This document shows positions 3,190 to 16,205 of a DNA stretch of 32,000 bases, piece by piece (position 1 is the first letter of the stretch; the number at the start of each line of letters is the position of its first letter). This DNA is from Moraxella nasovis. Lineage in GTDB: Bacteria > Pseudomonadota > Gammaproteobacteria > Pseudomonadales > Moraxellaceae. The translations under genes were made by a program, and so were the position numbers. The stretch spans positions 1,500,001-1,532,000 of the forward strand of contig NZ_CP089976.1 of assembly GCF_022701215.1 (NCBI RefSeq). The letters run 5' to 3'. The notes under the pieces are model-generated. The model was not told where the DNA came from. It saw nothing but the letters and a program-made list of their open reading frames with translations, and did no database searches.

Positions 3190-3237
3190 TTGCCAAAATC
3201 TTGTCATGAATGGCTATCACAAATCTATATCAATCAT
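3190..3237 (-). pseudogene. Truncated doc (first ~16 codons, frameshifted)
   Basis: Aligns by eye with 12149-12196 (doc 5' end). It has a 1-nt deletion that creates a stop (MIDIDL*), and homology ends near 3190. Confidence 0.6.
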
Positions 3238-3368
3238 TTATCTGTTAATGCTTTAATCTTTTTTTTGTGGGTACTCATAACACGTTTGGCGGAATTTAAA
3301 ATTACTCGTTTTCCTGCTTCGCCTGTTAGGTGCATAATAACTGGTTTGGTGTTGGTGGGTTTGCTCAT
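3234..3368 (-). CDS. 44-aa putative antitoxin, second copy (orphan)
   Basis: Translation is MSKPTNTKPVIMHLTGEAGKRVILNSAKRVMSTHKKKIKALTDK*, about 90% identical to the 12193-12327 product. Its stop overlaps the ATG of the doc remnant (ATGA). Confidence 0.55.
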   Translation of the reverse strand: MSKPTNTKPVIMHLTGEAGKRVILNSAKRVMSTHKKKIKALTDK

Positions 3369-3386
3369 GGTGTTTTTCCTTGATTG

Positions 3387-3608
3387 TTAAGCTAAATCCG
3401 CCATTAGCTCGTCCAATGTATCAAATTTTACGCCTTTGCCGCTTGTTAATTCGTCTATCGCTTGGCGCGTCTCATCATTTGGTGTATAGGTAAATTGTAG
3501 GGCTTTTTCATAAGCACTATTTAGCACAAACTGCTCCACGCTCACGCTTTGGTGGTGGGCGATATGGGCGAAAATTTGGGCGATTTGCGGTGGCGAATCT
3601 AAAATCAT
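3387..3608 (-). CDS. RelB/DinJ-like antitoxin (73 aa), no cognate toxin in window
   Basis: The C-terminal TPNDETRQAIDELTSGKGVKFDTLDELMADLA resembles the DinJ/RelB C-terminal region. The N-terminus is compatible with a ribbon-helix-helix fold. Family assignment is from memory of these motifs. Confidence 0.5.
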   Translation of the reverse strand: MILDSPPQIAQIFAHIAHHQSVSVEQFVLNSAYEKALQFTYTPNDETRQAIDELTSGKGVKFDTLDELMADLA

Positions 3609-3644
3609 CTTGTGATCCTGTTAAATGCGTTCTTACCGCCTTAA

Positions 3645-3673
3645 ATTGTAGTAAACTAATAACCTAATGACAA
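3645..3673 (-). promoter_or_regulatory. Sigma70-like promoter of the remnant TA operon
   Basis: The minus strand reads TTGTCA-17 nt-TACAAT. The same arrangement is found at 12381-12409. Confidence 0.5.
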
Positions 3674-3789
3674 TAAAACCAATCTATGCCAAGCCATCGG
3701 CGGTTTAATGGCGTGGGAAATAAGGTGTCTTTATGATAAAGACGCCCATAAAAGACAGTTATACCAAAAGTGGTAACATAACAGGCAAG

Positions 3790-4049
3790 GGCGTGGGTGT
3801 CCTATCGACTCACGCCTTGCCATTTTGGCGGTTTCGCTTCCGTGCGTCTGCTAGGCTGATAAATGGATATTGTCCAAGGTTGGTATTTTGTTGTTTACTA
3901 AGATAGCGATAAGCAACTACTCATGATTGAACGCCTGTATATCTTACCCATAATTGCAAGTCGTTCATGTCGCTGTATTTGTCTGGGCGTGTGCGGGGTT
4001 ATTTGTCGGAGGGTTTTAGTTTTTTAATAGCGGTATCGGTTAAAGCCAT
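3790..4049 (-). pseudogene. Tyrosine integrase N-terminal fragment (frameshifted, truncated)
   Basis: The minus strand from ATG 4049 gives MALTDTAIKKLKPSDK*, then ..PDKYSDMNDLQLWVRYTGVQS.. and ..GQYPFISLADARKRN.. in other frames. These parallel MSLTDTALKRLKPSEK..PDKISDGNGLMVLIRHSGTKS..GKYPMISLAQARSEN of the intact integrase. Confidence 0.65.
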
Positions 4050-4147
4050 GAATGATAAGTTTTGGGCGTGCATTTGTTGGCACTATAATAAATGAACTAC
4101 AATACCAACAAAATTCATGGATTGCAATCCATCATCATGGATGCATA

Positions 4148-4229
4148 CAGACAACAAAACCGCCAAAACCCCATAAAACAAAAAGGTTGTCGGACAATGT
4201 CGGACAACCTTAGAGTAGAATATGGGGTG
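4148..4229 (+). repeat. 82-bp direct repeat (left copy), attL-side boundary of the main island
   Basis: 78/82 identical by eye to 16054-16135. It ends in tggggtg, which matches the last 7 nt of tRNA-His. A degenerate pseudo-tRNA 3' end continues to about 4245. It contains a copy of the hairpin terminator (4185-4209). Confidence 0.85.
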
Positions 4230-4296: not shown

Positions 4297-4320
4297 ATAC
4301 CGTAAAATATACCGTAATTT
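4297..4320 (+). promoter_or_regulatory. Putative arm-type integrase binding sites (left arm)
   Basis: ATACCGTAA-aat-ATACCGTAA is the same 24-nt string as at 15996-16020 next to int. The function is inferred. Confidence 0.45.
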
Positions 4321-4762
4321 TACAAAGCAACCCCCATTTTTGATTAAATTTTAACCATTTTTAGCCCACTTCCTAACGATTGACAGCAGCCAATAAAAAG
4401 CGGTTATGGGTGTCAGATTTTCGCCTATTTGTGTAATTTTATGTAACTTTGTTTCAATGGATATTTTCGGAGAAAATTCCCAAACAAAAAATTTTTTTTA
4501 TGCGTGGGAAAAGGGGCGGTGTCCACTGGACGGGCTTTGTAATTTATCGCACACCCCCCGAACGGTGGGCGTGTTTTTTGTGGTGGGATTGGGCTTGATG
4601 GTGGGCGGTGCTTATGGATTGCCTGTTAATTGGTAAATGGGCTTGATATGGGGCGGGTGGTGGCATTCTAATGATAAAAGCCCCATCGTGTCGCCTTAAA
4701 TCTAGGTATTGCGTACTTTTCTATCATCACGCCATCAATGCACCGTATTACAACACTGCTAC

Positions 4763-5037
4763 AACATTAAAATAATTCAATTAATAATAAAACTTGATGA
4801 ATAAAATTTAATTTACCCTTTGTTTTTTTTATTTTTTTACCCTAAAAACCGTCCAAATTATCCAAATTATGAAAAAATACCCCTGTAAGCCTTACTACAT
4901 AAGGGCTTATAATTTGGATTTAAAATCCAAATGAAAACCAAATTATAAATATCTAAGCCAAATATTAAGCCCTTATCATCGTGCAAGCCTTTAATATCAA
5001 GGGGTTCATAATTTGGATAATGATTTTATAATTTGGA
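4763..5037 (+). repeat. Iteron-rich ~275-bp inverted repeat, left copy (IR-L)
   Basis: Reverse complement of 13514-13788, roughly 90-93% identical by eye. It holds 8 or more TCCAAAT/ATTTGGA heptamers and a perfect 21-nt palindrome, atttggatttaaaatccaaat, at 4914-4934. Confidence 0.85.
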
Positions 5038-5090
5038 TTGGTTGGATTGTTTGGGTAGTGTGTCAGCTGTGCCAAAGATTTAATGATGGG

Positions 5091-5330
5091 CAGGCGTGGG
5101 CGGTGGTTCACGCCTGCACTTTTGGCGGTGTTTTTTTTTGATATGGTGGATAGTAGGGCGGATTTGTTGCCATATTTGCCCCATTTTGGGGGTTTTTAGC
5201 GTGGTTTGGGGTTTAGGTGGTGTTATCCCCTTGCCAAATGCTAAAAGGGCTATTTGGGGTGTTTTAGGGCGTGAATAATGGGCAATAAAAAAACAAGGGG
5301 TATTTTGCCCCTTGTTATGGTGTGCTCGAT
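5091..5330 (+). repeat. Dispersed mosaic G/T-rich element, copy A
   Basis: Shares these modules with copies at 7857, 10640, 12490 and 14450: caggcgtg..cacgcctg hairpin, ttcacgcctgcacttttggcggtg box (5107-5130), gatttgttgccatatttgccccattttgggggtttttagcgtgg core, and a terminator. Confidence 0.8.
5286..5320 (-). terminator. Rho-independent terminator after the primase operon
   Basis: caagggg-tattttg-ccccttg hairpin at 5294-5314, with a T-run on the minus strand (A-run at 5286-5293 on plus). Identical hairpins lie at 10877-10897 and 13310-13330. Confidence 0.7.
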
Positions 5331-5341
5331 ATAGTTGGGAG

Positions 5342-7570
5342 TTAAGCGGTTAATAATATGGGGTTAAGTTCTATCACTCGTTTGGTGCGTCTATAACTTG
5401 GCATATCGACAAGGCAAACATAATTACCGTCGCTAAGTGTTTCTAAGGCGTTATCTAGCACCTGCACGGCTCGCAAATCTTTGGGTAGTGCTTGTTGTAG
5501 GCTTGAATAAAAAAACCTACCTACACCGTGATTGCTTGGCTTATAGGCGTTCTTGATAAGCCATTGTAATAATCGCTCTGCGTCTGTAATGTCGGTTACT
5601 ATCTCGCTATATCTGCGACGCTCCGCCATGGAATATTCAACGATTTTAATCGCCCCTAATATATCCGCTTCATCAATCGCACGACTACCCTTAAACCAAG
5701 CAAACAAGGTGGCAATGCGTGTGGCATTCTCTACCATGCGTGAAGCGTAAGCCTTGTAGTGTTCATTGATGCCGCCTTTGGTTTGGCTAACTTCTACCGC
5801 TTGCCAAAACTTTTCAGCGATAGCCAAGGCGGGGGCTTGCCATGCCATTTTTTTACGTTTTGCCCCTAGCTCTGGCAATGATAAAAAGTTATGGCATTTT
5901 TTCCAATAGGTTTGTAATGTGGGGTCATGCTCTGGGCTGTCTTTTATCAGCTGTCTTATACCCCTGTTATCAGGTGGAAAGGCAAATAAACAACGTGGTA
6001 ATAAGCCTTGATTGTTTAATTTAATGTCATTTAGGGCTGGTTTTAAGGCGACTTCTTGGGCGGATAAAAATAACGTCAAACGCACGTCATAGGCGGCTTG
6101 TGCGTTGCCATTGCTTATCGTGATACGTTCAGCTTTGCCGTGGCTGTATATGTCGCATAACGCACCAATAGAAGCCCCTGCCGTTTCTGATTTTAAACTT
6201 GCCCCTTCAAGTAAATTTGCCCCTTCGTCTATGGTGTAGCTGGCGTTTAAATAATTGCCATCGGTAAAGCCTTGCATGATTTTTTGAATTGAACCGCTCC
6301 CAAACATTGCCCTAGGGTCTTTGGGTAGGTGGTTTTGGTTTTTAAAGGCGGTCATCTCTTTTTTGGTTTTGCCCGCCATTTCATTTTCATAGCTTATTTT
6401 ATTTTCCATAAAGTCTTGATAGCTTTGTTTTTCATGGTCGTTAATGGCTTTGTGGGTAATTTTGATGGTTTGGGTTTTACCGCTCCCACTTTCGCCCTGT
6501 ACCATAAGATATAGGCTTGATGGGTTGTAGCCTTGGCTTAGGTAGGGTGCGTCTATGAACCCTTGTCCAATATGACTGATTGCACCTAGCACCCCAAAAC
6601 TCGCCATAGATAACGGCACTTGCCCATAATAGGCGGTGCGTTCTATTACATGGGCTAGGTCTTTTGGGAATGCGTCAAGTGGGAAAGGCGTTTCTACGTT
6701 TTTTACTTCATCAAATGGGATAAGCTCGCCCCATTTTTCGCTGTCTTTGGCGTTGTCGCCTGTGCTTGTGGTGGTGCTTTTGGCGGTCGTGCTGGCGTGA
6801 ATGCTGGTTAAATCATCGTTATTATTCACGCCTGCACTTTTGGCGTGATAGGCTTGTGCGTCCAAGCGTGGCAAGCCAAGGATTTTATCAATGATATGGC
6901 GGTCATCGTTGCCTTGTTGTCTTAAAATCTCTATATAATCAAATACATCAAAACCCTTTGGCATGATTTGGCTGGTGCTGGCGTGATACTCTTTGGCTAA
7001 TGTATCCACGTCTATCACGTCCACGCTTACACCCATCTCGTGTAGGCGTTGTGATAGCTCTGTTTGCCATTTGTCGCCCACATCGTCATAATCACGCCAT
7101 AACACCACATGACAGCCCATAAGGGGCGTTAAATCGGTGGTTTTTAGGCTCGTACTTGCTCCGCTTGTGGTGGCGGTTATGCCAAAGTTAGTTAATGCGT
7201 CTGCACATTTTTCGCCTTCCACAAAATACACCTTAGCAGGTTTTGGCATGGTGTTTTTATCCAGTAGGGGCAAATTATACAAAGGCTTTTTACCGTCTAT
7301 AAAGCGTGCTTTTGGTTCGCCCACATGAAAACCGCTGTTATCGTGATACATGGGCTTAATCCATTTATTGCCATCTTTGGCAAATCTAGGCTTAAAATAC
7401 AGTAAATGACCGTCTTTGTCGGTGTAGGCGTGAACGCCCCTAAAGTGGGCTTTTAGGTTAAAATTTAGCCCCTTAAACTGTCTATCACTTGCCATTAAAT
7501 GATTAAAAAGGGCTTGGATAAACTCAAAACTTAGTAAATCTTTCACACTAAGGCGGTTTTGCGTGTTCAT
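5342..7570 (-). CDS. Toprim-domain primase fused to a DUF3987-like P-loop NTPase (replicative primase/helicase of the island)
   Basis: The N-terminal Toprim signature is VYFVEGEKCADAL ... LWRDYDDVGD. A Thr/Ser/Asn-rich linker follows. The C-terminal Walker A is GESGSGKT, in a YfjI/DUF3987-like region. Confidence 0.8.
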   Translation of the reverse strand: MNTQNRLSVKDLLSFEFIQALFNHLMASDRQFKGLNFNLKAHFRGVHAYTDKDGHLLYFKPRFAKDGNKWIKPMYHDNSGFHVGEPKARFIDGKKPLYNLPLLDKNTMPKPAKVYFVEGEKCADALTNFGITATTSGASTSLKTTDLTPLMGCHVVLWRDYDDVGDKWQTELSQRLHEMGVSVDVIDVDTLAKEYHASTSQIMPKGFDVFDYIEILRQQGNDDRHIIDKILGLPRLDAQAYHAKSAGVNNNDDLTSIHASTTAKSTTTSTGDNAKDSEKWGELIPFDEVKNVETPFPLDAFPKDLAHVIERTAYYGQVPLSMASFGVLGAISHIGQGFIDAPYLSQGYNPSSLYLMVQGESGSGKTQTIKITHKAINDHEKQSYQDFMENKISYENEMAGKTKKEMTAFKNQNHLPKDPRAMFGSGSIQKIMQGFTDGNYLNASYTIDEGANLLEGASLKSETAGASIGALCDIYSHGKAERITISNGNAQAAYDVRLTLFLSAQEVALKPALNDIKLNNQGLLPRCLFAFPPDNRGIRQLIKDSPEHDPTLQTYWKKCHNFLSLPELGAKRKKMAWQAPALAIAEKFWQAVEVSQTKGGINEHYKAYASRMVENATRIATLFAWFKGSRAIDEADILGAIKIVEYSMAERRRYSEIVTDITDAERLLQWLIKNAYKPSNHGVGRFFYSSLQQALPKDLRAVQVLDNALETLSDGNYVCLVDMPSYRRTKRVIELNPILLTA

Positions 7571-7596
7571 TTGTCTTGTTTTCCTGTTATCTTATC

Positions 7597-8157
7597 TTAA
7601 ATATCTAAATTCAAATCACGGCAAGCGGTCAAAAAGTCGCAATTATGATAACGCTGGTAAAAATCAAGCACATCGCCACCACTCGCCCCACACCCAAAAC
7701 AAAAAAACGCCCCTGTTTGGCGGTTAATACTTAGGCTTGGTGTTTTGTCGCCATGAAATACGCATTTTACGTTAGTTTGATTGCCTTTTAGGGCAATGCC
7801 ATAACGTGCGTAAAAGCTCACTGGGTCGGGTTTATTGTCCGTGTTCATGCGTTTTTGTGGGCGGTTTTGGCTTGCATTGCTATAGGGCAAATGATAAGGC
7901 GGATTTGTCGCCATATTTGCCCCATTTTGGGGGTTTTTAGCGTGGTTTTGGGCGTGGGTGGTGTTACCCCCTTGATGGGGGTTAAACGTGCCATTTTGGG
8001 CGGTTTTGGCGGTCGTGCTGGCGTGAGTGTTGTTATTTGAACAGTTGTCCACGCCTGCACTATTTGCCCCATTTGTCGCCCTGTCGGTGGTGGGCTTTTG
8101 TGAACCAAACAAGCCTTGATTAAAAAATGATGGTCTTTTAAAGAATGAATGGCTCAC
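7597..8157 (-). CDS. CHC2 zinc-finger primase-like protein with a low-complexity N-terminal extension
   Basis: The C-terminal CVFHGDKTPSLSINRQTGAFFCFGCGASGGDVLDF is a DnaG-type CHC2 finger. GTG 8157 is preceded by the SD AAGGGGGT. An alternative start at ATG 7848 would give an 83-aa finger-only protein. Confidence 0.75.
   Translation of the reverse strand: MSHSFFKRPSFFNQGLFGSQKPTTDRATNGANSAGVDNCSNNNTHASTTAKTAQNGTFNPHQGGNTTHAQNHAKNPQNGANMATNPPYHLPYSNASQNRPQKRMNTDNKPDPVSFYARYGIALKGNQTNVKCVFHGDKTPSLSINRQTGAFFCFGCGASGGDVLDFYQRYHNCDFLTACRDLNLDI
7857..8075 (+). repeat. Dispersed mosaic element, copy E (lies inside the long form of the zinc-finger ORF)
   Basis: Shares ttgcattgctatagggcaaatgataaggcg.atttgtc.cc.tatttgccccattttggg with copy D, and ccccttgatgggggttaaacgtgccattttgggcg with copy C. 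Confidence 0.75.
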
Positions 8158-8187
8158 GTTACCCCCTTGTTGTGCTTGATGATTGGT

Positions 8188-8568
8188 TTAGCCGTCTGAT
8201 ATGCTCACGGTCTTAATGAATGCTTGTGCGGTCGGTAAGCTATTAGCATAATGCTGGGCTTGGGTCTCATCATCAAAATAATGACAAGCCATAACAAAAT
8301 GCTTAGGCTTACCAGTACCGAACATCACGCCATTTGGGATAAATGGGGCAATGTCTTTAAAACTTACATGATTGCACGGCTGGAAAGGCGGTTTATTGCC
8401 ATCGTTGCCATTATTGATAAATCTTGTATGCTTATAGCCTGTAATGTCGGCGTTGGGATAATCTAGCTTGACTTGTTCAAGAAATACCAAGGCACTTTCT
8501 TTGTTGGCGAACTCTTTGTAAATCCGTGGATTGTTACAGCTTATTGAATAGTAGATAACTTCAATCAT
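8188..8568 (-). CDS. Hypothetical protein (126 aa)
   Basis: Long ORF translationally coupled to the upstream gene (ATGA overlap, SD AAAGGGGGTG). No family recognised. Confidence 0.6.
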   Translation of the reverse strand: MIEVIYYSISCNNPRIYKEFANKESALVFLEQVKLDYPNADITGYKHTRFINNGNDGNKPPFQPCNHVSFKDIAPFIPNGVMFGTGKPKHFVMACHYFDDETQAQHYANSLPTAQAFIKTVSISDG

Positions 8569-8819
8569 TTTACACCCCCTTTGGTGGTATTATTGACGGC
8601 TGGCGTGTCGGCGGTTAATCGCTCTAAGGCTTGGTTAAGTTCTGTTTGGGCGGTCTCTACTGCTTGCCATATCAGCATTATCATGGCTTTAGTGCGGTCT
8701 AGCTCTGTACCCGTATCCATGCCATGATACAGAAAATAAACCCCCGCTAATGCGTCATCTAGGGCGTTTTTTGCGTCTTCTATGTCAAATAAAACATTGC
8801 TATGGTTATTAAGGCTCAT
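8565..8819 (-). CDS. Hypothetical protein (84 aa)
   Basis: ATGA overlap at both ends and SD AAAGGGGGTG. No family recognised. Confidence 0.6.
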   Translation of the reverse strand: MSLNNHSNVLFDIEDAKNALDDALAGVYFLYHGMDTGTELDRTKAMIMLIWQAVETAQTELNQALERLTADTPAVNNTTKGGVK

Positions 8820-9352
8820 TTTGCACCCCCTTTAATTGCGTTTAAAATGCGTTTTAAGGCACTTTTAGGCTTAGGTGGTGCATAGGTAGCACAAGGGGCG
8901 TTATCAAGCGATTTTAGGGCGTGTATGGCGTTATAAATGGCATTGGCACGCTCACAATAGCCGTTAAAGGGTTCTTGGGCGTGTAGCTCATTATAGCGGT
9001 GGTATTCGTCTGTTAAGACGGTTAGGGAATGGGATAAAATAGATTGGTTCATGTTGTAGTTACCTTTCGAAGTTTTGGAAAACACCCCAAAAATAGGGTG
9101 GGCTGGAAGTTCGAAAACCGCTACAACAACGGCGTGTGGTATTGGGTATTTCCACACCTTCCAACCCATAAGAAAGGCAACCGACAAAAAAGCGGTTAAA
9201 TTCTGATAGGCATAAAAAATCCAAGTATTTCGCCCTTGGTTGGCGGTTGTAAAGCAGTTTTCGACGCTGCGGGCGATATTCTGCAATACTGCTTGAATTT
9301 TATCAAGTGATAAAATTTCATCAAAAATACGTTTAATGTGAATTAAATTCAT
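8816..9352 (-). CDS. Hypothetical protein (178 aa; start uncertain)
   Basis: A 178-codon open frame in AT-rich DNA. ATG 9352 lacks an obvious SD. The internal ATG at 9052 (MNQSILSH..) is an alternative start. Confidence 0.5.
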   Translation of the reverse strand: MNLIHIKRIFDEILSLDKIQAVLQNIARSVENCFTTANQGRNTWIFYAYQNLTAFLSVAFLMGWKVWKYPIPHAVVVAVFELPAHPIFGVFSKTSKGNYNMNQSILSHSLTVLTDEYHRYNELHAQEPFNGYCERANAIYNAIHALKSLDNAPCATYAPPKPKSALKRILNAIKGGAK

Positions 9353-9436
9353 GCTATAATCTATCCATCTTGTTATCTTACCTAAACCGCTTTATCTGTC
9401 ATGGATAAGGCGGTTTTTGTATGGTAGGTGTGGCGG

Positions 9437-9655
9437 TTATTGTATGCTATCGCTTTCGTCTGCAAGCTCTTGTAAAATTTCGTGCTTGATGGCGTGAATG
9501 TCGCTCATCATGCCTTGGCAAATATGACGCATTTTTTTAATGCGTTTTTCGTGTTTGGATAGTTTTTTATCAAATCTTGCCAAAGTCTTGATAACATCGC
9601 TTAAATTCTCATCGCAAATTTTGGCGGTGCGTTGGGTGCTGGTGTTTTGTTCCAT
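9437..9655 (-). CDS. Hypothetical protein (72 aa, predicted helical and charged)
   Basis: ORF with SD aaagga upstream. An imperfect hairpin follows at about 9389-9417. Confidence 0.5.
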   Translation of the reverse strand: MEQNTSTQRTAKICDENLSDVIKTLARFDKKLSKHEKRIKKMRHICQGMMSDIHAIKHEILQELADESDSIQ

Positions 9656-9717
9656 GGTGGTTTCCTTTGGTTTTGGCTTGGTTAAAATGGGTTTGGGTTC
9701 TTAAAGTCTATTGGTGC

Positions 9718-9918
9718 TTATTTTTTACCAGTCCAATAGCCCCATTTTTGCATGGTATCTGTACCCCATATAAGCATATTCATATAACCATAGCCCGCTT
9801 TTTCGTTTAGTTTTACTAGCCTATTCCAAAAAGCATTTTCGCTTAGGCGTTTACCTGCTTTGGTGTAGGGTGTGATTTCGTGCATTTCTTGACGTGCTTT
9901 TTGCATTTTTGGGGTCAT
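9718..9918 (-). CDS. Hypothetical protein (66 aa)
   Basis: Tightly packed after 9920-10213, with SD aaggtaag. No family recognised. Confidence 0.5.
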   Translation of the reverse strand: MTPKMQKARQEMHEITPYTKAGKRLSENAFWNRLVKLNEKAGYGYMNMLIWGTDTMQKWGYWTGKK

Positions 9919-9919
9919 G

Positions 9920-10213
9920 TTACTTACCTTTTTTGGTGGTTTTGGTTTTGGGTTTATTTAAAATCTCTTCACGAAGTGCCATAGCTTTTACTTTGTCTTT
10001 GATGAAGTAGCGTTTAAAGCGTGAATTTTCGGTTTCGTGCCATTGCCAATCAATGATAAAACCTAGCTTTTTAAGCTCTGCAATACGGCTTGATAGGCTG
10101 ACCACGTTTAGCACGTTTACGGCATATAGGACGTGTACACCGTCGCCGTCTAGCATGGCTTGTAGTACTTGCCATTTTTGGCGGTTTTTGTGGGCGTGGG
10201 TAATGGGTATCAT
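9920..10213 (-). CDS. Putative winged-helix DNA-binding protein (97 aa)
   Basis: Strong SD (aaggag). The segment VVSLSSRIAELKKLGFIIDWQW resembles the HTH_39-type winged helix common in P4-like islands. Assignment is from memory of the motif. Confidence 0.5.
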   Translation of the reverse strand: MIPITHAHKNRQKWQVLQAMLDGDGVHVLYAVNVLNVVSLSSRIAELKKLGFIIDWQWHETENSRFKRYFIKDKVKAMALREEILNKPKTKTTKKGK

Positions 10214-10241
10214 GGTTTAACTCCTTATGGTCTGTTTGGGC

Positions 10242-10493
10242 TTATTGTTTGGCTTTGGGTTGGTATTGTGCCAAGTCGTCTGCACTTTCAAGGTTATCTA
10301 ACCACGCCAAAACATCGCTATTACGCCATGCACTCATGCTAGTAGATAGCTTGATGGGTTTTGGGAATTTGCCTTGTTTTATCCAGCCGTAAATCGTGGA
10401 TTTGGACAGCCCCACCATCTTGCAGACCTTATCAATACGGCTAATGCCTTTGGGGTGGAAAGTATCGTTTTGGGTTTGGGTGGTTTTGGTCAT
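10242..10493 (-). CDS. alpA: AlpA-family transcriptional regulator / excisionase-like (83 aa)
   Basis: ISRIDKVCKMVGLSKSTIYGWIKQGKFPKPIKLSTSMSAWRNSDVLAWL matches the AlpA/MerR-type HTH signature. The start is taken at ATG 10493, which has the SD ggag. Confidence 0.85.
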   Translation of the reverse strand: MTKTTQTQNDTFHPKGISRIDKVCKMVGLSKSTIYGWIKQGKFPKPIKLSTSMSAWRNSDVLAWLDNLESADDLAQYQPKAKQ

Positions 10494-10544
10494 TGGTTTA
10501 CTCCGTATGTGTTCATTTGGGCTTTGTCGCACTGTAAATAAGTT

Positions 10545-10573
10545 GCGTGCGAAAATTATAGGCGTGTACGAAA
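10545..10573 (-). promoter_or_regulatory. Candidate promoter of the alpA-to-primase operon
   Basis: The minus strand reads TTGTTG-17 nt-TATAAT, about 50 nt upstream of alpA. Confidence 0.45.
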
Positions 10574-10639
10574 ATAACAACAACGCAATACCCTGCTATC
10601 TGTACACTTAGGGGGGGTATCTATAAAAACGGAGTTTTA

Positions 10640-10925
10640 GGCGGTTAATGCAAAAAGGGCGAAACAGCAGGCGTGGGCGGTGTGTTTTTATCGTTCACGC
10701 CTGCACTTTTGGCGGTGTTGTTGTGATATGGTGGATAGTGGGGCGGATTTGTTGCCATATTTGCCCCCTTTTGGGGGTTTTTAGCGTGGTTTGGGTGGTG
10801 GGTGGTGTTACCCCTTGCCAAATGCCAAAAGGGTTATTTGGGGTGTTTTAGGGCGTGAATAATGGGCAATAAAAAACAAGGGGAATTTTGCCCCTTGTTT
10901 TGGTGTTGGTGTTGGTGGTGCGTGG
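10640..10925 (+). repeat. Dispersed mosaic element, copy B
   Basis: Near-colinear with copy A. The box is at 10694-10717 and the hairpin halves at 10668-10675 and 10696-10703. Confidence 0.8.
10870..10903 (-). terminator. Rho-independent terminator after the 267-aa gene
   Basis: caagggg-aattttg-ccccttg hairpin at 10877-10897. T-runs are present on both strands. Confidence 0.7.
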
Positions 10926-11729
10926 TTATTTGTCTTTTTGGGCTTTATGGGCTTTATGGGCTTTATGGGCTTCCCTTAATGTGCCATATATCCATTCATA
11001 TTTCTTGTTTTCTAGGTTGTCATGTATAAAAACATATTCGGCGGTTTGTGTGAAGTTAAAGCCCTTATCCTGCATGATTTTTAGGTATCTTTGTCCTAAT
11101 TGCTTTCTTTCTTGGCGGTGTGGTTCTGTTGCTTTTAGGGCGTTTTGTCGTCCTTGTTCGCTTTGTACTTGGCGGTGTATGTCTTCTTTGGTTTTATCGT
11201 CAATCATACCTAGCGTTAAAATTCTATCTTGTGGCAAGCCATGTAGATACTGCACACCGCCTAGCACTTTCAAGGCGTGATTTTTGAGTAAATGGGCGTA
11301 AAAGGGCTTTTTGCGGTCGTGGTAAATCTGTGCAAATTGCTTAAATACCAAATGCAATGTTACCATCTCAACCGCTCTTTGTCTGACCGCTGGCGGTGGT
11401 AGCTCTATATTTGGGTTAGCCTTGGCAAGGCAATAAAAAAGGTGGTCTATGGCGGTGCTAGGTGGTGTATTGGTGCGTATGTGGTTAAATAGGCGGGGGA
11501 ATTGATAGCCTTTGGTTTCTTGTTGTAGTTTTTGACAAATGGCGTGAATGTCTGTAATACAAGCGTGGCAATTTTGCCAAAATTCATCGAAATGACTAAA
11601 ATTGCCAAAAAATGAAAAGGCAATTTCTGCAAAATCTTGTTTACTCACGCCCATACCAATATCAAAAAAATCACCAAGTTTAAGGGAGTTAAATTCTTTG
11701 GCTAGTGCTTGAAATGTTTTGTTGTTCAT
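10926..11729 (-). CDS. Hypothetical cargo protein (267 aa from ATG 11729; 272 aa from ATG 11744)
   Basis: Long ORF with the SD aagg before ATG 11729. The C-terminus carries an (AHK)x3 repeat. No domain recognised. Confidence 0.65.
   Translation of the reverse strand: MNNKTFQALAKEFNSLKLGDFFDIGMGVSKQDFAEIAFSFFGNFSHFDEFWQNCHACITDIHAICQKLQQETKGYQFPRLFNHIRTNTPPSTAIDHLFYCLAKANPNIELPPPAVRQRAVEMVTLHLVFKQFAQIYHDRKKPFYAHLLKNHALKVLGGVQYLHGLPQDRILTLGMIDDKTKEDIHRQVQSEQGRQNALKATEPHRQERKQLGQRYLKIMQDKGFNFTQTAEYVFIHDNLENKKYEWIYGTLREAHKAHKAHKAQKDK
10940..10971 (+). repeat. Tandem 9-bp repeat gggctttat x3 (plus a partial copy)
   Basis: Seen directly. It encodes the AHKAHKAHK tail on the minus strand. Only two units are present in the orphan copy at 13361-13382. 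Confidence 0.85.
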
Positions 11730-11783
11730 CTCATACCTTACCATACCTTAAAAAAGATAGCAGGCGTGGCGGTCTAAGGTATG

Positions 11784-11805
11784 AAAAATAACCGCCTTTC
11801 GGTTA
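11784..11805 (-). terminator. Weak hairpin/T-run downstream of doc
   Basis: taaccg-ccttt-cggtta hairpin with a T-run on the minus strand. The stem is short. Confidence 0.35.
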
Positions 11806-11830
11806 ATTACTCCTAGCCTGCTAAAAGGGT

Positions 11831-12196
11831 TTAAACTGTTAAATCTTTTAAAATATCTGCAAGGTGGGTATAATTCATTTCACTGCTTGCCACTTTTACC
11901 ATCAAATCATCTAATCCGCTATTGGGGGCAATGTTAATACCTTGCATATCCAAATAAGTTAACATAACCACAAGGGCGGTTCTTTTATTGCCATCATTAA
12001 AGGCGTGTGCTTTGGCTAATGCTACGGCATAAAATGCCCCTATCAAATATACATTATCCAATGGCTCATAACTCATTTGATTGTCAATGCGTGATAAGCA
12101 ACTTTCAAGGCTTGCCATGCTTGCAATGCCCTTTAAGCCTTTTTCATTTGCCAAAATCTCGTCATGAATGGCTATCACAAAATGTATATCAATCAT
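11831..12196 (-). CDS. doc: Doc (death-on-curing) / Fic-family toxin
   Basis: 121 aa with the Doc-type Fic motif HAFNDGNKRTA. Confidence 0.85.
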   Translation of the reverse strand: MIDIHFVIAIHDEILANEKGLKGIASMASLESCLSRIDNQMSYEPLDNVYLIGAFYAVALAKAHAFNDGNKRTALVVMLTYLDMQGINIAPNSGLDDLMVKVASSEMNYTHLADILKDLTV

Positions 12197-12327
12197 TTAT
12201 CCGCCAATGCCTTAATTTCTTTTTTATGGGTATTCATAACACGTTTGGCAGAGTTTAAAATTACTCGTTTTCCTGCTTCACCTGTTAAGTGCATAATAAC
12301 TGGCTTGGTGTTGGTGGGTTTACTCAT
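12193..12327 (-). CDS. 44-aa putative antitoxin partner of Doc
   Basis: Translation is MSKPTNTKPVIMHLTGEAGKRVILNSAKRVMNTHKKEIKALADK*. Its stop overlaps the doc ATG (ATGA). It is not in the ORF track (<60 aa) and not recognisably Phd-like. Confidence 0.6.
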   Translation of the reverse strand: MSKPTNTKPVIMHLTGEAGKRVILNSAKRVMNTHKKEIKALADK

Positions 12328-12380
12328 GGTGTTTTGTTATCCTGTTAAAATTACGCTCGTATTTGTTTGGATTGCTTGAA

Positions 12381-12409
12381 ATTGTAGCAAACTAATAATC
12401 CAATGACAA
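12381..12409 (-). promoter_or_regulatory. Sigma70-like promoter of the antitoxin-doc operon
   Basis: The minus strand reads TTGTCA-17 nt-TACAAT. Confidence 0.55.
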
Positions 12410-12489
12410 TAAAAACCAATCCATGCCAAGCCATAGGCGGTTAATATGGTGTGGGGAAATAAGCTATTGTTATCACAACAATACCTACA

Positions 12490-12720
12490 AAAGGCGGTTA
12501 ATGCAAAAAGGGCGAAATGGCAGGCGTGGGCGGTGTGTTTTATCGTTCACGCCTGCACTTTTGGCGGTGTTTTTTTGATATGGTGGATAGTGGGCGTATT
12601 TGTCGCCGTATTTGCCCCATTTTGGGGGTTTTTAGCGTGGTTTGGGGTTTAGGTGGTGTTACCCCCCTTGATGGGGGTTAAACGTGCCATTTTGGGCGTT
12701 TTGGTGCGTTTTGATTGCGT
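12490..12720 (+). repeat. Dispersed mosaic element, copy C
   Basis: The box is at 12546-12569 and the hairpin halves at 12521-12528 and 12548-12555. The right end matches copy E rather than copies A and B. Confidence 0.8.
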
Positions 12721-12821
12721 TTTATAATTTTATGAAGTGCAAGGGTTGGATTTTGAATAATTTTCGGATAATAAAAAAGCCAAATTTTTAATATAATTTT
12801 TATGCAAAATGTATAAATTGA

Positions 12822-12850
12822 TTGACTTATAAGGTAGTTTAGAATATAAT
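12822..12850 (+). promoter_or_regulatory. Near-consensus sigma70 promoter
   Basis: TTGACT (12822-12827), a 17-nt spacer, then TATAAT (12845-12850). Confidence 0.65.
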
Positions 12851-12943
12851 ATAAACAACAAGGCAAGAGTTGCAGCTCTTGCCTTGTAGGCGGTAGATTG
12901 TTCATGCAATCTATTAAACCCACCAGTAGAAGGAGTAAAAGCG

Positions 12944-13009
12944 ATGAAGACTTTATTAAAAATCGCAATTATCCTTGTGTTATGTATCTTACTAAAATCT
13001 AGCAGTTAA
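12944..13009 (+). CDS. 21-aa hydrophobic peptide (type I toxin-like or leader peptide)
   Basis: Translation is MKTLLKIAIILVLCILLKSSS*. The SD aggag lies 8 nt upstream. The 5' UTR holds an 11-bp-stem hairpin (12859-12886). Confidence 0.5.
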   Translation: MKTLLKIAIILVLCILLKSSS

Positions 13010-13089
13010 GTCAAGCCATAGCACAACGACCGCCCTAGTGGTATCGGGGCGGTTCGCTACTAAGTGGAATATTTGAACAAGGTTAAATC

Positions 13090-13302
13090 ATGCCAAAAAT
13101 TATCAATACACCAAAAACACGCCTACAAATCCAAAAAGACAGCGATACCAAGCGGGGTATTAAGTCCATAGGTTTTAAAGTGCCTATTGAGTTTGCAAAC
13201 CGTCTTGATGAACTTGCCAAGCAAACAGGCAAAACTAAAAACATCATTATCATGGAGGCGGTGGAGCTATGGCAAGCCAACCATGCTAATAATGGGCAAT
13301 AA
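13090..13302 (+). CDS. Ribbon-helix-helix (CopG/Arc-like) DNA-binding protein (70 aa)
   Basis: IGFKVPIEFANRLDELAKQTGKTKNIIIMEAVELW fits the beta-alpha-alpha RHH pattern. It is co-oriented with the small peptide ORF. Confidence 0.6.
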   Translation: MPKIINTPKTRLQIQKDSDTKRGIKSIGFKVPIEFANRLDELAKQTGKTKNIIIMEAVELWQANHANNGQ

Positions 13303-13385
13303 AAAAAAACAAGGGGTATTTTGCCCCTTGTTATGGTGTTGGTGGTGCGTGGTTATTTGTCTTTATGGGCTTTATGGGCTTATTC
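13290..13385 (+). repeat. Orphan copy of the terminator plus 3'-end block of the 267-aa gene
   Basis: Aligns by eye with 10861-10975. It includes the hairpin at 13310-13330, ggtggtgcgtggttatttgtct, and two gggctttat units. Only about 8 terminal codons remain before an in-frame stop. Confidence 0.75.
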
Positions 13386-13513
13386 CCATGCTATCAAGCC
13401 ATTTTGTAACGCTCATTACCGCCCCTTTGTCGGTGTTTGGGCTTGCCTTGATAGTATCATTTTATAGTATCAAATGATGATACTAAATGCCAACCCTTTA
13501 CCAATTCCCACCG

Positions 13514-13788
13514 TCCAAATTATAAAACCATTATCCAAATGATGAAACCCTTGATATTAAAGGCTTTCATGATGAATAAGGGTTAATATTTGGATTAAAT
13601 ATTTATAATTTGGGTTTCATTTGGATTTTAAATCCAAATTATAAGCCCTTATGTAGCAAGGCTTACAGGGGTATTTTTCCATAATTTGGATAATTTGGAC
13701 GGTTTTTAGGGTAAAAAATAAAAAAAAATAAGGGGTAAATTAAATTTTATTCATCAAGTTTTATTATTGATTGAATTATTTTAATGTT
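13514..13788 (-). repeat. Iteron-rich ~275-bp inverted repeat, right copy (IR-R)
   Basis: Reverse complement of 4763-5037. Confidence 0.85.
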
Positions 13789-13919
13789 TTGTGCTATGTC
13801 AATACATAATAATAAAAAAGTACGCAACGCCCACACTTAACCGCCCATCATGTCGCCATTTAATAAAATAGGGTCATGCTGGGCAAGGCGTGGCGGTGTA
13901 GTGGTGGCTTTTACTGAAA

Positions 13920-14400: not shown

Positions 14401-14449
14401 TGGTTTTTTATGGGGGCTTTGTGATTTGTTGGGGTGTTTGCCTTGATTT

Positions 14450-14630
14450 GTGGGCGTGGGCGGTGTTTTGTTGGTTCACGCCTGCACTTTTGGTGGTGGT
14501 GTTGTGGTATGTCGGTGGTTTTGGTTTGCATTGCTATAGGGCAAATGATAAGGCGTATTTGTCACCGTATTTGCCCCATTTTGGGTTAAATATCAAAAAG
14601 GGGCGAAATGGCAGGCGTGGCGGTCATTGC
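14450..14630 (+). repeat. Dispersed mosaic element, copy D (overlaps the integrase stop codon)
   Basis: The box is at 14475-14498. It shares the ttgcattgctatagggcaaatgataaggcg module with copy E. Confidence 0.75.
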
Positions 14631-15967
14631 ATTCCTTTGATTTCTAATAGCTCCGCTTGGTGCGTGGCAAGCTCGCCATGCAAAATTGCACCATTTTTAT
14701 AAATCCGCCCTAAAAATAACGCCAAATCATCGCTTGAACCATCGGCAGTTAGACGCTTTCGGTAGGTGCTAAAATCTCCGTCTTTGATTTCATCGACAAT
14801 ATCCGCCCATTCTTTCATCATCTGCATTCTTTTGGGTATCATGTCGGCGTGGTTGTAGGCTCGTTCGGTCTTATCCTTGCTAACGTGTGCCAACTGCAAT
14901 TCAATGGCTTTGGGGTTGTACTGCATTTCATAAAGGGACGTACTAGCCAAACCACGAAAGCCGTGCCCTGTCATTTTGTCTTTGTAGCCCATGCGTTTTA
15001 GGGCGGTGGTTAGGGCGTTGGGCGATAGGGTTTCACGCTGTTTACTGCGATTGCTAAAAAACACAAATTCATCATGTAACCGCCATTCTTTAATTGTTTG
15101 CAAAATCTCTATTACTTGTGGGGCAAGCGGTACAACGTGCGTATTACGGCATTTCATGCGTTCGGGCGGTATCGTCCAAAGGCAAGTATTAAAATCAATT
15201 TCCACCCATCGCATACCAAACAGCTCATTAGTTCGCACGAAAGTATAAGCCATCACATAAAACGCATATTTGGTTAATGGCTCTAAATTGGCGTTGTCAA
15301 TGTCTGCTAGTAGCTTTGGTAGCTCGGTAATTTTTATGCGGGGGTAATTAGTTTGTTTGTGTTCAACCAATGATTTATGAATACCCCTTGGAATGGGATT
15401 TAATAGATTTGGGGCAAGCCCTTTAATGATGGTGTGTTCAAATATCGCACTTATCCAGCTTACCGCCTTATGTGCCATGTTGGTTTTGCCATTTAATGCC
15501 AAGCGGTCATGCACCGCTAGCACGTCCGATAATTTGACGTGATAAATGTTCATATTTCCCAAAATGGGCTTGATATGGTTTTTGTAGGCGTTGCTGTCTC
15601 GTTTAAAGGTGGCAGGGTTAATGCGTTTTTCTTGGTGCTGTAGCCATATTTGGGCGAAATGGTCAAAGTCTAGGGTGTCTTTTTGCTTGGCTTTTTGGCG
15701 TTCGTCTTTGGGGTTTATGCCTTGGCTTGCCAGTTCACGAATGCGGATATTTTCGCTTCGTGCTTGTGCTAGGCTTATCATGGGATACTTGCCTATGGTA
15801 ATTTCTTGTGTTTTGCCATTAAAAGAATAGGCACTAATAAATGACTTTGTTCCACTATGCCTAATCAGTACCATCAAGCCGTTACCGTCTGAAATTTTAT
15901 CGGGGCGGTTGGCGGTGCATTTTTCGCTAGGTTTTAGGCGTTTTAGGGCGGTATCTGTCAGGCTCAT
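14624..15967 (-). CDS. int: P4-type tyrosine integrase (DUF4102 arm-binding N-terminus plus phage integrase catalytic domain)
   Basis: 447 aa. The N-terminus is MSLTDTALKRLKP..DGNGLMVLIRHSGTKSF. Catalytic-region motifs are HGFRGLASTSLYE and LAHVSKDKTERAYNH. It lies adjacent to a tRNA. Confidence 0.92.
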   Translation of the reverse strand: MSLTDTALKRLKPSEKCTANRPDKISDGNGLMVLIRHSGTKSFISAYSFNGKTQEITIGKYPMISLAQARSENIRIRELASQGINPKDERQKAKQKDTLDFDHFAQIWLQHQEKRINPATFKRDSNAYKNHIKPILGNMNIYHVKLSDVLAVHDRLALNGKTNMAHKAVSWISAIFEHTIIKGLAPNLLNPIPRGIHKSLVEHKQTNYPRIKITELPKLLADIDNANLEPLTKYAFYVMAYTFVRTNELFGMRWVEIDFNTCLWTIPPERMKCRNTHVVPLAPQVIEILQTIKEWRLHDEFVFFSNRSKQRETLSPNALTTALKRMGYKDKMTGHGFRGLASTSLYEMQYNPKAIELQLAHVSKDKTERAYNHADMIPKRMQMMKEWADIVDEIKDGDFSTYRKRLTADGSSDDLALFLGRIYKNGAILHGELATHQAELLEIKGMQ

Positions 15968-16020
15968 TTACGGTATAATTTAAAATTGAACTCATATACC
16001 GTAAAATATACCGTAATTTT
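15968..16020 (+). promoter_or_regulatory. Putative arm-type integrase sites (int-proximal arm)
   Basis: One inverted copy, ttacggtat (15968-15976), plus ATACCGTAA x2 (15996-16016). Confidence 0.45.
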
Positions 16021-16053
16021 TCATAGATTGCAATAAACCAATACGGACTAATG

Positions 16054-16135
16054 CAGACAACAAAACCGCCAAAACCCCACAAAATAAAAAGGTTGTCGGA
16101 CAATGTCGGACAACCTTAGAATAAAATATGGGGTG
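16054..16135 (+). repeat. 82-bp direct repeat (right copy), overlapping the tRNA-His 3' end
   Basis: 78/82 identical by eye to 4148-4229. Confidence 0.85.
16081..16115 (-). terminator. Rho-independent terminator downstream of tRNA-His (carried on the island end)
   Basis: ggttgtc-ggacaatgtcg-gacaacc hairpin at 16091-16115, with a T-run on the minus strand (16081-16090). Confidence 0.6.
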
Positions 16136-16205
16136 AGTAATGGGACTTGAACCCACGACAACCGGAATCACAATCCGGGGCTCTACCAACTGAGCTATAC
16201 CCACC
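16129..16205 (-). tRNA. tRNA-His (GTG)
   Basis: Folded by hand as a cloverleaf: extra G-1, anticodon loop TTGTGAT, T-arm GGTTCAAGTCC, encoded CCA. Confidence 0.9.

Follow-up and report, generated by a model that had tools for sequence, protein, structure and literature searches.

A 275-nt inverted repeat pair brackets most genes of an integrative island in Moraxella nasovis, and its two arms are probably, though by no means surely, a duplicated and inverted iteron-type origin that would serve the island's own replication proteins. The window analyzed here is a stretch of 32,000 nucleotides (contig NZ_CP089976.1, positions 1,500,001 to 1,532,000), and all window positions below are counted from its first letter. 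The island is about 12 kb long, encodes an integrase, AlpA and a primase-helicase, and adjoins tRNA-His. It is an element of the int-alpA-primase satellite kind, and its new feature is the conserved, co-evolving inverted second copy of the putative origin. The pair is not accidental, as it is kept in the islands of M. bovis, M. bovoculi and M. oculi. Small phage satellites and islands have been described with a single origin by the replication gene, whereas in this clade a second copy, in inverted orientation, has persisted across deep divergence. The searchable literature yielded no account of these Moraxella islands and none of satellites with paired inverted origins.

Positions 4763-5037 are the reverse complement of 13514-13788 over 275 nt, without gaps and with 19 mismatches (93% complementary, from a repeat search and our own count), and the longest perfect runs between the two arms are 42, 39 and 36 nt. 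This exact alignment bears out an earlier sequence-only reading of the same DNA, which had put the identity at 90-93%. The fainter similarity that it reported beyond the arms is also present: 4696-4727 pairs with 13809-13840 (32 nt, 78%), and this stretch holds the outer box TTGCGTACTT on both sides. The pair is the sole long inverted repeat in the window, the other pair of at least 40 nt being 40 nt at 70%. Exact TCCAAAT occurs six times in the left arm and seven times in the right arm, together 13 of the 19 copies in the window, for which 8.5 would be expected over its whole length. The at least eight heptamers claimed for each copy are therefore reached only when the first base is left free (NCCAAAT, 8 per arm). 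The claimed perfect palindrome atttggatttaaaatccaaat, with 10-nt arms round one central base, was found in both arms, while the nested inverted pair ataagggcttat / taagcccttat is perfect in the left arm only and has a mutated second member in the right arm. The claim that the pair encloses every island gene except int also holds for every sizeable open reading frame (ORF) of the island. None of the 19 mismatches falls within the 48 nt of CCAAAT cores, where 3.3 would be expected (P about 0.03 by our own arithmetic).

A profile search of genome contigs placed the nearest homologues of the primase in M. bovis, M. bovoculi and M. oculi, with 57-59% identity. The inverted pair, whose presence in relatives the sequence-only reading had proposed to examine, was found at the window's two places in every full-length relative (4/4). 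The islands of M. bovoculi and M. oculi lie at tRNA-Arg, and their integrase is 56% identical to that of the window; the presence of the pair despite another tRNA site and a divergent integrase indicates that it travels with the replication genes and not with a particular integration module. The arms within one island are about 93-97% identical, whereas arms of different lineages can be aligned over about 76-300 nt at 64-77%. In the M. bovis arms the long spacers have diverged and the repeats and dyad are kept, which, together with the mismatch-free repeat cores of the window, indicates that protein-binding sites are under selection. From end to end, the M. bovoculi and M. oculi islands share 93% identity, and a four-way comparison of their arms was made over 305 ungapped columns. 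A total of 11 concerted sites was counted, at which the two arms of each island agree but the two islands differ, against 0 orthologous and 0 cross sites. This is the signature of gene conversion between arms. No similar inverted pair was found by self-BLAST beyond the Moraxella clade among 140 other TOPRIM-bearing loci. A second copy that is retained and kept alike should have some role: it may take part in cooperative initiation, provide strand-specific starts, control copy number or drive amplification by recombination.

Two further observations concern the surroundings of the arms. The primase-side module is flanked by direct repeats in M. bovoculi (12225-12374 / 12698-12847, 150 nt at 99%) and in M. 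oculi (12224-12315 / 12664-12755, 92 nt at 92%); each of these repeats ends in the outer box, like a unit of 440-473 bp partly duplicated in tandem. A short-read Logan contig of 6606 nt from the M. bovis island (L002) starts and stops inside the arms, at 20-41 and 6566-6587. Assemblies thus break at the repeat, and draft genomes may hide or misorient the segment.

Ten arms were aligned, two each from the window, the two M. bovis islands, M. bovoculi and M. oculi. They have a common plan, which reads from outer to inner as a box, an AT-rich stretch, CCCyAAAA, two direct repeats, a dyad, two repeats, a spacer and opposed repeats (Table 1). The stretch between the box and CCCyAAAA is variable but usually AT-rich. 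The inner opposed repeats number two or three per arm and lie about 20 bp apart beyond a spacer of about 100 nt, and the 20-bp spacing seen in the window recurs in M. bovoculi, M. oculi and M. bovis (L001). The short repeat is TCCAAATTA in the window, TCTAAGTTATTC in M. bovis, and TGCTAAGTTATTC in M. bovoculi and M. oculi; it is always identical in both arms of an island and differs between islands. Each arm has the layout of an iteron-type origin, and its reading as a putative origin is well supported by the comparison.

The same islands suggest which protein reads the repeats. Identity of the primase-helicase is 57% between the window and M. bovis and 74.6% between M. bovis and M. bovoculi, whereas the integrases of the same two pairs are 75.8% and 59% identical. 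The short repeats of the window and M. bovis differ at two positions, and those of M. bovis and M. bovoculi are nearly alike. Repeat similarity thus tracks the identity of the primase and not that of the integrase, which makes the primase-helicase the likely reader. A fold search with its AlphaFold model matched the N-terminal 250 residues to the DnaG catalytic core (E about 7e-5). Residues 661-742 are predicted to fold as helix-strand-helix-helix-strand-strand, the order of a winged helix, with a predicted local distance difference test score (pLDDT) of 70-80. Pfam and PHROGs scans of the island ORFs recognized only the integrase, AlpA, a small winged-helix protein, Doc, the zinc ribbon and TOPRIM-DUF3987, and no Rep_3 match was found among the island proteins. 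The 272-aa protein of conserved position was considered as a hidden Rep; a word search gave no homologues, and it is 12-44% identical to its positional counterparts.

Two more distant relatives carry a single module. In another Moraxella island (L012), the TOPRIM part of whose primase is about 41% identical, 11 GTTCCCKAT repeats form one cluster at 9399-9745 directly after the primase-helicase gene and flank an AT-rich stretch; no GTTCCCKAT was found outside this cluster, and none near int. The circular Psychrobacter plasmid pA37P2 (NZ_MN657074.1, L303; 10,345 bp) encodes a DUF3987 protein with 40% identity in the helicase part, and its single module (9232-9442) follows directly after the DUF3987 gene, with repeat pairs 9 bp apart round a hairpin. 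Its gene set comprises an arm-type integrase, antiterminator Q, a helix-turn-helix (HTH) protein and the DUF3987 helicase, plus a RepM replicon with 22-bp repeats, and the whole resembles an island that was excised and joined to, or taken up by, a plasmid replicon. It resembles the window island in its integrase, HTH protein and DUF3987 protein and in having a module of the same layout directly after the DUF3987 gene, but differs in being a free plasmid that also carries repM and has only one primase-linked module. Searching IMG/VR with the primase profile returned no related island, only distant TOPRIM matches (28-43%).

In phage-inducible chromosomal islands (PICIs), the tested origin lies directly 3' of rep, and two repeat sets flank an AT-rich region (PMC6092414). 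Since the single modules and the PICI origin all sit directly after the primase-helicase or rep gene, the primase-side arm is suggested to be ancestral and the integrase-side arm to be a derived inverted duplicate. The window island resembles PICIs in having int, alpA and a primase/initiator gene in one reading direction, in its position next to a tRNA gene, and in its length of about 12 kb, within the 7-20 kb of that class, with its own attachment site. Judged by sequence only, the likeness extends to the left arm lying about 300 bp past the primase stop, with opposed repeats and an 85% AT block. The differences are that PICIs, including Staphylococcus aureus pathogenicity islands (SaPIs), EcCICFT073 and other Gram-negative members, were described with one origin, while a second inverted copy lies beside int here, and that no capsid-remodelling, packaging or terminase gene was recognized among the ORFs of the window island by the Pfam and PHROGs scans.

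The proposed mechanism can be outlined as follows. Replication would rely on the island's DnaG-like primase, which is split, and on its DUF3987 helicase, which ends in a predicted winged helix. Of the two copies, the one beyond the primase-helicase gene would be the ancestral origin, as in PICIs, and the one beside int would be an inverted duplicate that arose in the clade of the window, M. bovis, M. bovoculi and M. oculi islands, was retained by selection and is kept alike by gene conversion. In the excised circle, int and attP would lie between the modules, which would be about 2.8 kb apart. Both modules would be bound by the initiator at their island-specific repeats. The pair may then cooperate through an initiator bridge, as do P4 ori and crr or the R6K origins, or its members may be separate starts, one per strand. 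The anatomy of the arms, their conservation, their concerted evolution and their match to the origins of relatives are observed, whereas we infer the binding by the primase-helicase, the firing or cooperation of both copies, and the reason for keeping two. Three natural repeat variants that differ by one or two bases, together with the single-origin relatives, constitute built-in test material.

Several observations weigh against this proposal and are gathered here. The two single-module relatives indicate that a second copy is not needed for such a replicon. In a metagenome island whose primase is 59% identical (L005), the primase side carries only two TCTAAGTTATTC repeats and the box after the primase gene (6280-6345), with no dyad or opposed repeats there, while its integrase side lies beyond the contig; this is a reduced or decayed primase-side module, and at least one island lives with, or fell to, a lesser copy. 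The integrase-side spacer of M. bovis is not AT-rich, which suggests that the copies may be non-equivalent. No DnaA boxes were found in the related arms, and the near-matches in the window are only part of the repeats themselves. The hairpin of the dyad is weak (-4 to -8 kcal/mol), and of 200 shuffled sequences 4-100 reach an equal or better fold. Confidence in the AlphaFold model of the primase-helicase is partial (mean pLDDT 61.6, from a shallow alignment), the C-terminal winged helix of the protein gives weak fold matches to winged-helix regulators (E 0.4-0.6), and the C-terminal residues group by repeat type in a way that is inseparable from shared ancestry. Note that the M. bovis spacer and L005 caution against taking the copies to be equivalent or indispensable.

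The dyad of the arms occurs outside these islands. A scan of viral and metagenome contigs with the dyad pattern gave many matches, with mixed neighbour genes; the pattern has 17 fixed bases, about 100 chance matches are expected, and some of the matches in environmental contigs are probably due to chance. However, 76 of 99 matches lie outside ORFs, their unspecified flanking bases are biased, and about a quarter lie among local arrays of other element-specific short repeats. The form in environmental contigs is yTGTAAGCCTT-N4-CAyAAGGG(T/C)T, and further examples are L220, L162, L239 and L247. Exact dyads were found in L224 (4860-4881) and L233 (2624-2645) upstream of a Rep_3 gene, with three AT-rich repeats on one side and three or four 22-bp repeats on the other, and 43 plasmids of Acinetobacter, Moraxella and Psychrobacter match this origin region. 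No Rfam family was matched by the arms, nor by the dyad at 20 other loci, and the dyad flanks displayed no pairing covariation in a flank-swap test. The dyad looks like a sequence-specific origin component, and its presence in plasmid origins of Moraxellaceae points to a shared component of which no description was found.

The Rep_3 (RepM or Aci-type) origins are like the island arms in the order of AT-rich repeats, dyad and repeats about 20-22 bp apart. Such plasmids have a Rep_3 initiator gene beside 3-5 direct 22-bp repeats. They differ in that the island has no Rep_3 gene, that the island repeats are 9-13 nt and not 22 nt long, and that there is no wider sequence match between arms and plasmids; moreover, pACICU1 (L300, 1555-1585) has another sequence with hairpin potential at the dyad position. 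An undescribed strand-specific start or loading signal, common to Rep_3 origins and primase-helicase satellites, is a speculative role for the dyad that we consider improbable. If true, the inverted second origin would give each strand one signal, and the primase-helicase could copy both strands continuously from two fixed starts, like ssiA/ssiB of RSF1010, so that replication would be independent of the host lagging-strand machinery during helper infection. The strand-specific priming signals ssiA and ssiB of RSF1010, and oriS of herpes simplex virus (HSV) in the inverted repeats flanking the short unique segment, resemble the arms in presenting an origin or priming signal twice, inverted, one per strand. 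Their replication proteins and scales are unrelated, and the likeness is an analogy only.

Among the alternatives to a duplicated origin, the best placed, although unlikely, is that the integrase-side array is a copy-number control locus which titrates the initiator or handcuffs the working primase-side origin. P1 and F offer a precedent, where incA and incC restrain firing. The two clusters of the island carry the same repeat, single-module relatives replicate without a second array, and M. bovis has extra repeats flanking the AT-rich stretch on the primase side only, its integrase-side spacer not being AT-rich. On the other hand, the window and M. bovoculi duplicate the whole module at 93-97%, including the AT-rich block and dyad that titration does not need, and a satellite induced for a replication burst has little obvious need of restraint. 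Duplication of the whole module hence speaks for a second origin that is active, more than for a site of titration only. Two initiator-binding clusters are also known from P1 (incC/incA), F (ori2/incC) and R6K (gamma with alpha/beta). As in these plasmids, a second cluster of the same repeat lies away from the origin and pairing through the initiator is plausible; in contrast, their second cluster is a mere repeat array flanking rep and not a full inverted origin 8.5 kb off.

In phage P4, the alpha primase-helicase binds ori and crr, and crr consists of two direct 120-bp repeats in a layout unlike that of ori. The sequence-only reading had drawn on P4 to propose a two-site origin. The comparison backs the origin part of that proposal, whereas L012 and pA37P2, which use a single module, argue against a general need for both sites. 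The island and P4 are alike in having two separated clusters of the same repeat, 8.5 kb apart here, and in being small integrative satellites with their own primase-helicase and a predicted C-terminal DNA-binding domain. Here, however, each site is a whole module, nearly identical to the other and inverted relative to it, the helicase is of DUF3987 type and not P4 alpha type, the P4 genes sid, psu, delta and epsilon were not found in the Pfam and PHROGs scans of the island ORFs, and the single-module relatives suggest that the second site is not obligatory.

It is considerably less likely that the arms serve recombination, either as a switch of the 8.5-kb segment or through fork reversal that leads to double rolling-circle amplification and concatemers for packaging. 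The yeast 2-micron plasmid is amplified in this way when recombination reverses one fork. The arms do exchange sequence, as the concerted sites reveal, and perfect runs of 36-42 nt suffice for occasional homologous recombination. Yet arms that are 3-11% diverged are poor substrates for frequent exchange, and recombination would leave the island-specific repeats and the shared origin anatomy unexplained. The inversion of the segment suggested by the sequence-only reading finds no backing: int and the primase gene are co-directional in 5/5 islands and in both single-module relatives, which is weak evidence against inversion (three independent lineages), and no transposase, serine invertase or second tyrosine recombinase was found among the island ORFs with Pfam and PHROGs. 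The invertible segments of Hin, Gin and Fim differ accordingly, with a dedicated invertase and arms of 9-30 nt in place of 275 nt. Occasional inversion may nevertheless occur, since the arms exchange sequence over evolutionary time.

Slightly less likely again is another DNA-binding role, in which the arms would be a packaging signal for a helper terminase, a partition site or regulator operators. Short-repeat arrays are also typical of accessory pac/cos sites and centromeres. A promoter-like TTGACA-16-AATAAT at the outer edge of the right arm and the CopG-like gene adjoining that arm would fit such a role, but the left arm has no conserved counterpart of the promoter-like site, and the related islands with the pair lack the CopG-like gene. 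Comparing the arms with phage and plasmid collections by BLAST gave no real match, which argues against a cos/pac site of a helper and against a recent plasmid origin. Moreover, the module follows the primase-helicase gene in the plasmid and in the other island, and the dyad recurs in plasmid origins. Least probable of all are the terminal inverted repeats of a nested transposable unit or a neutral duplication yet to decay: long inverted repeats do bracket a gene set, and the primase-side modules of M. bovoculi and M. oculi are flanked by direct repeats, but there is no transposase and no target-site duplication, the outer flanks differ and similarity fades gradually to the box, while the pair persists in islands with primases 57% identical and M. 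bovis has kept repeats and dyad beside a diverged spacer.

Table 1. Features of the window island and positions of the arms in related islands (related islands numbered in their own loci).
Feature	Position	Strand or reading	Remark
Attachment direct repeat, 116 nt	4114-4229 and 16020-16135	+ (4114-4229)	Right copy overlaps tRNA-His 3' end
ATACCGTAAAATATACCGTAATTTT	4299-4323, again 15996-16020	+ (4299-4323)	Tandem ATACCGTAA x2; candidate integrase arm-type sites, distinct from the inverted-arm repeats
Outer box TTGCGTACTT	4709-4718; partner 13818-13827	+; partner -	TTGCGTRCTT at outer edge of 10/10 arms
Primase-side (left) arm	4763-5037	+, read outer to inner	Candidate ancestral origin
AT-rich block, 85.5% AT (window average 58%)	4763-4845; mirror 13706-13788		Candidate unwinding region
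Two direct repeats TCCAAATTA, 9 bp apart	4852-4869; mirror 13683-13700	+; mirror -	
Dyad TGTAAGCCTT-N4-CAnAAGGG	4884-4905; partner 13646-13667	+; partner -	Core identical in all arms, including the four related islands
21-nt palindrome, opposed ATTTGGA / TCCAAAT	4912-4932; mirror 13619-13639		Then ACCAAAT (4937), GCCAAAT (4957)
Two opposite-orientation repeats, 20 bp apart	5010-5037; mirror 13514-13541	-; mirror +	Inner end of arm
Primase-helicase, 742 aa, TOPRIM-DUF3987	5342-7570	-	Candidate repeat reader
CHC2 zinc-ribbon protein, DnaG type	7597-8157	-	Separate gene; true start possibly further downstream
AlpA-family regulator / excisionase	10242-10583	-	
Small winged-helix protein gene	within island	-	
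272-aa protein	within island	-	No family match
Doc toxin gene	within island	-	From the Pfam/PHROGs scan
Integrase-side (right) arm	13514-13788	-, read outer to inner	Position matches L001, L008, L009 and L010
Tyrosine integrase (int), arm-binding domain	14624-15967	-	Only island gene beyond the inverted pair
tRNA-His	16129-16204	-	
M. bovis island (L001), arms	5842-5969 / 12400-12527		128 nt, 89%
M. bovis island (L010), arms			L001's island in a second strain; 128 nt, 89%
M. bovoculi island (L008), arms	3650-3970 / 12397-12717		321 nt, 97%
M. oculi island (L009), arms	3732-4019 / 12342-12629		288 nt, 92%

The island genes all lie on the minus strand save one small CopG-like gene. The left arm begins about 300 bp beyond the stop of the primase-helicase, and the right arm has the CopG-like gene on one side and the 3' end of int on the other. 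Both arms of the window are thus located between convergent gene ends or beyond a gene end, outside promoter regions. The arms were also considered as promoter or operator arrays, a candidate that was rejected on account of their position at gene 3' ends and of the sole good promoter-like match being confined to one arm.

Tandem pairs of an 8-9-mer are repeated directly near both island ends, not only in the window but also in M. bovis (L001, 3907-3932 / 12861-12886) and M. bovoculi (L008, 1781-1809 / 13194-13222). These are likely the integrase arm-type sites of attP. The short repeats of the inverted arms were tried in the same capacity and rejected, as they lie at an unsuitable distance from the ends, their type has no link to the integrase, and the separate end-proximal repeats fit.

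Three other repeat families are dispersed in the island. The 9-mer CACGCCTGC / GCAGGCGTG occurs 11 times in the island, at 5090, 5109, 6827, 8050, 10667, 10696, 11760, 12520, 12548, 14477 and 14611, and once in the other 20 kb (0.17 expected). It is present in 8-15 copies in every related island (L001, L004, L008-L012) and absent from plasmid pA37P2. Some copies lie inside coding sequence, at matching places in the primase linker and the zinc-ribbon gene, and dyads are formed at 5090/5109, 10667/10696 and 12520/12548. A regulator that acts across the island may bind the 9-mer. Five direct copies of a module of about 200 nt, bearing the GCAGGCGTG..CACGCCTGC dyad, were found (5060-5290, 7800-8030, 10640-10870, 12495-12725 and 14440-14640). 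For transcripts that run leftward, a copy precedes alpA, phd-doc, the zinc-ribbon/primase genes and each inverted arm, at a distance of 23 nt from the left arm and about 600 nt from the right arm. The five modules may be repeated promoter/operator cassettes. One palindromic terminator, AACAAGGGG(N7)CCCCTTGTT with a run of T behind it, recurs at the ends of three genes, namely those of the primase (5292-5316), the 272-aa protein (10875-10901) and the CopG-like protein (13308-13332).

Outside the island, 3221-3376 and 3638-3678 are an 88-90% copy of 12180-12335 and 12374-12414 inside it, which cover the phd-doc junction and its upstream region. The outside copy lies just left of the attachment repeat, beside an antitoxin-like ORF of 73 aa (3387-3608), and may be what is left of a former tandem island at this site.

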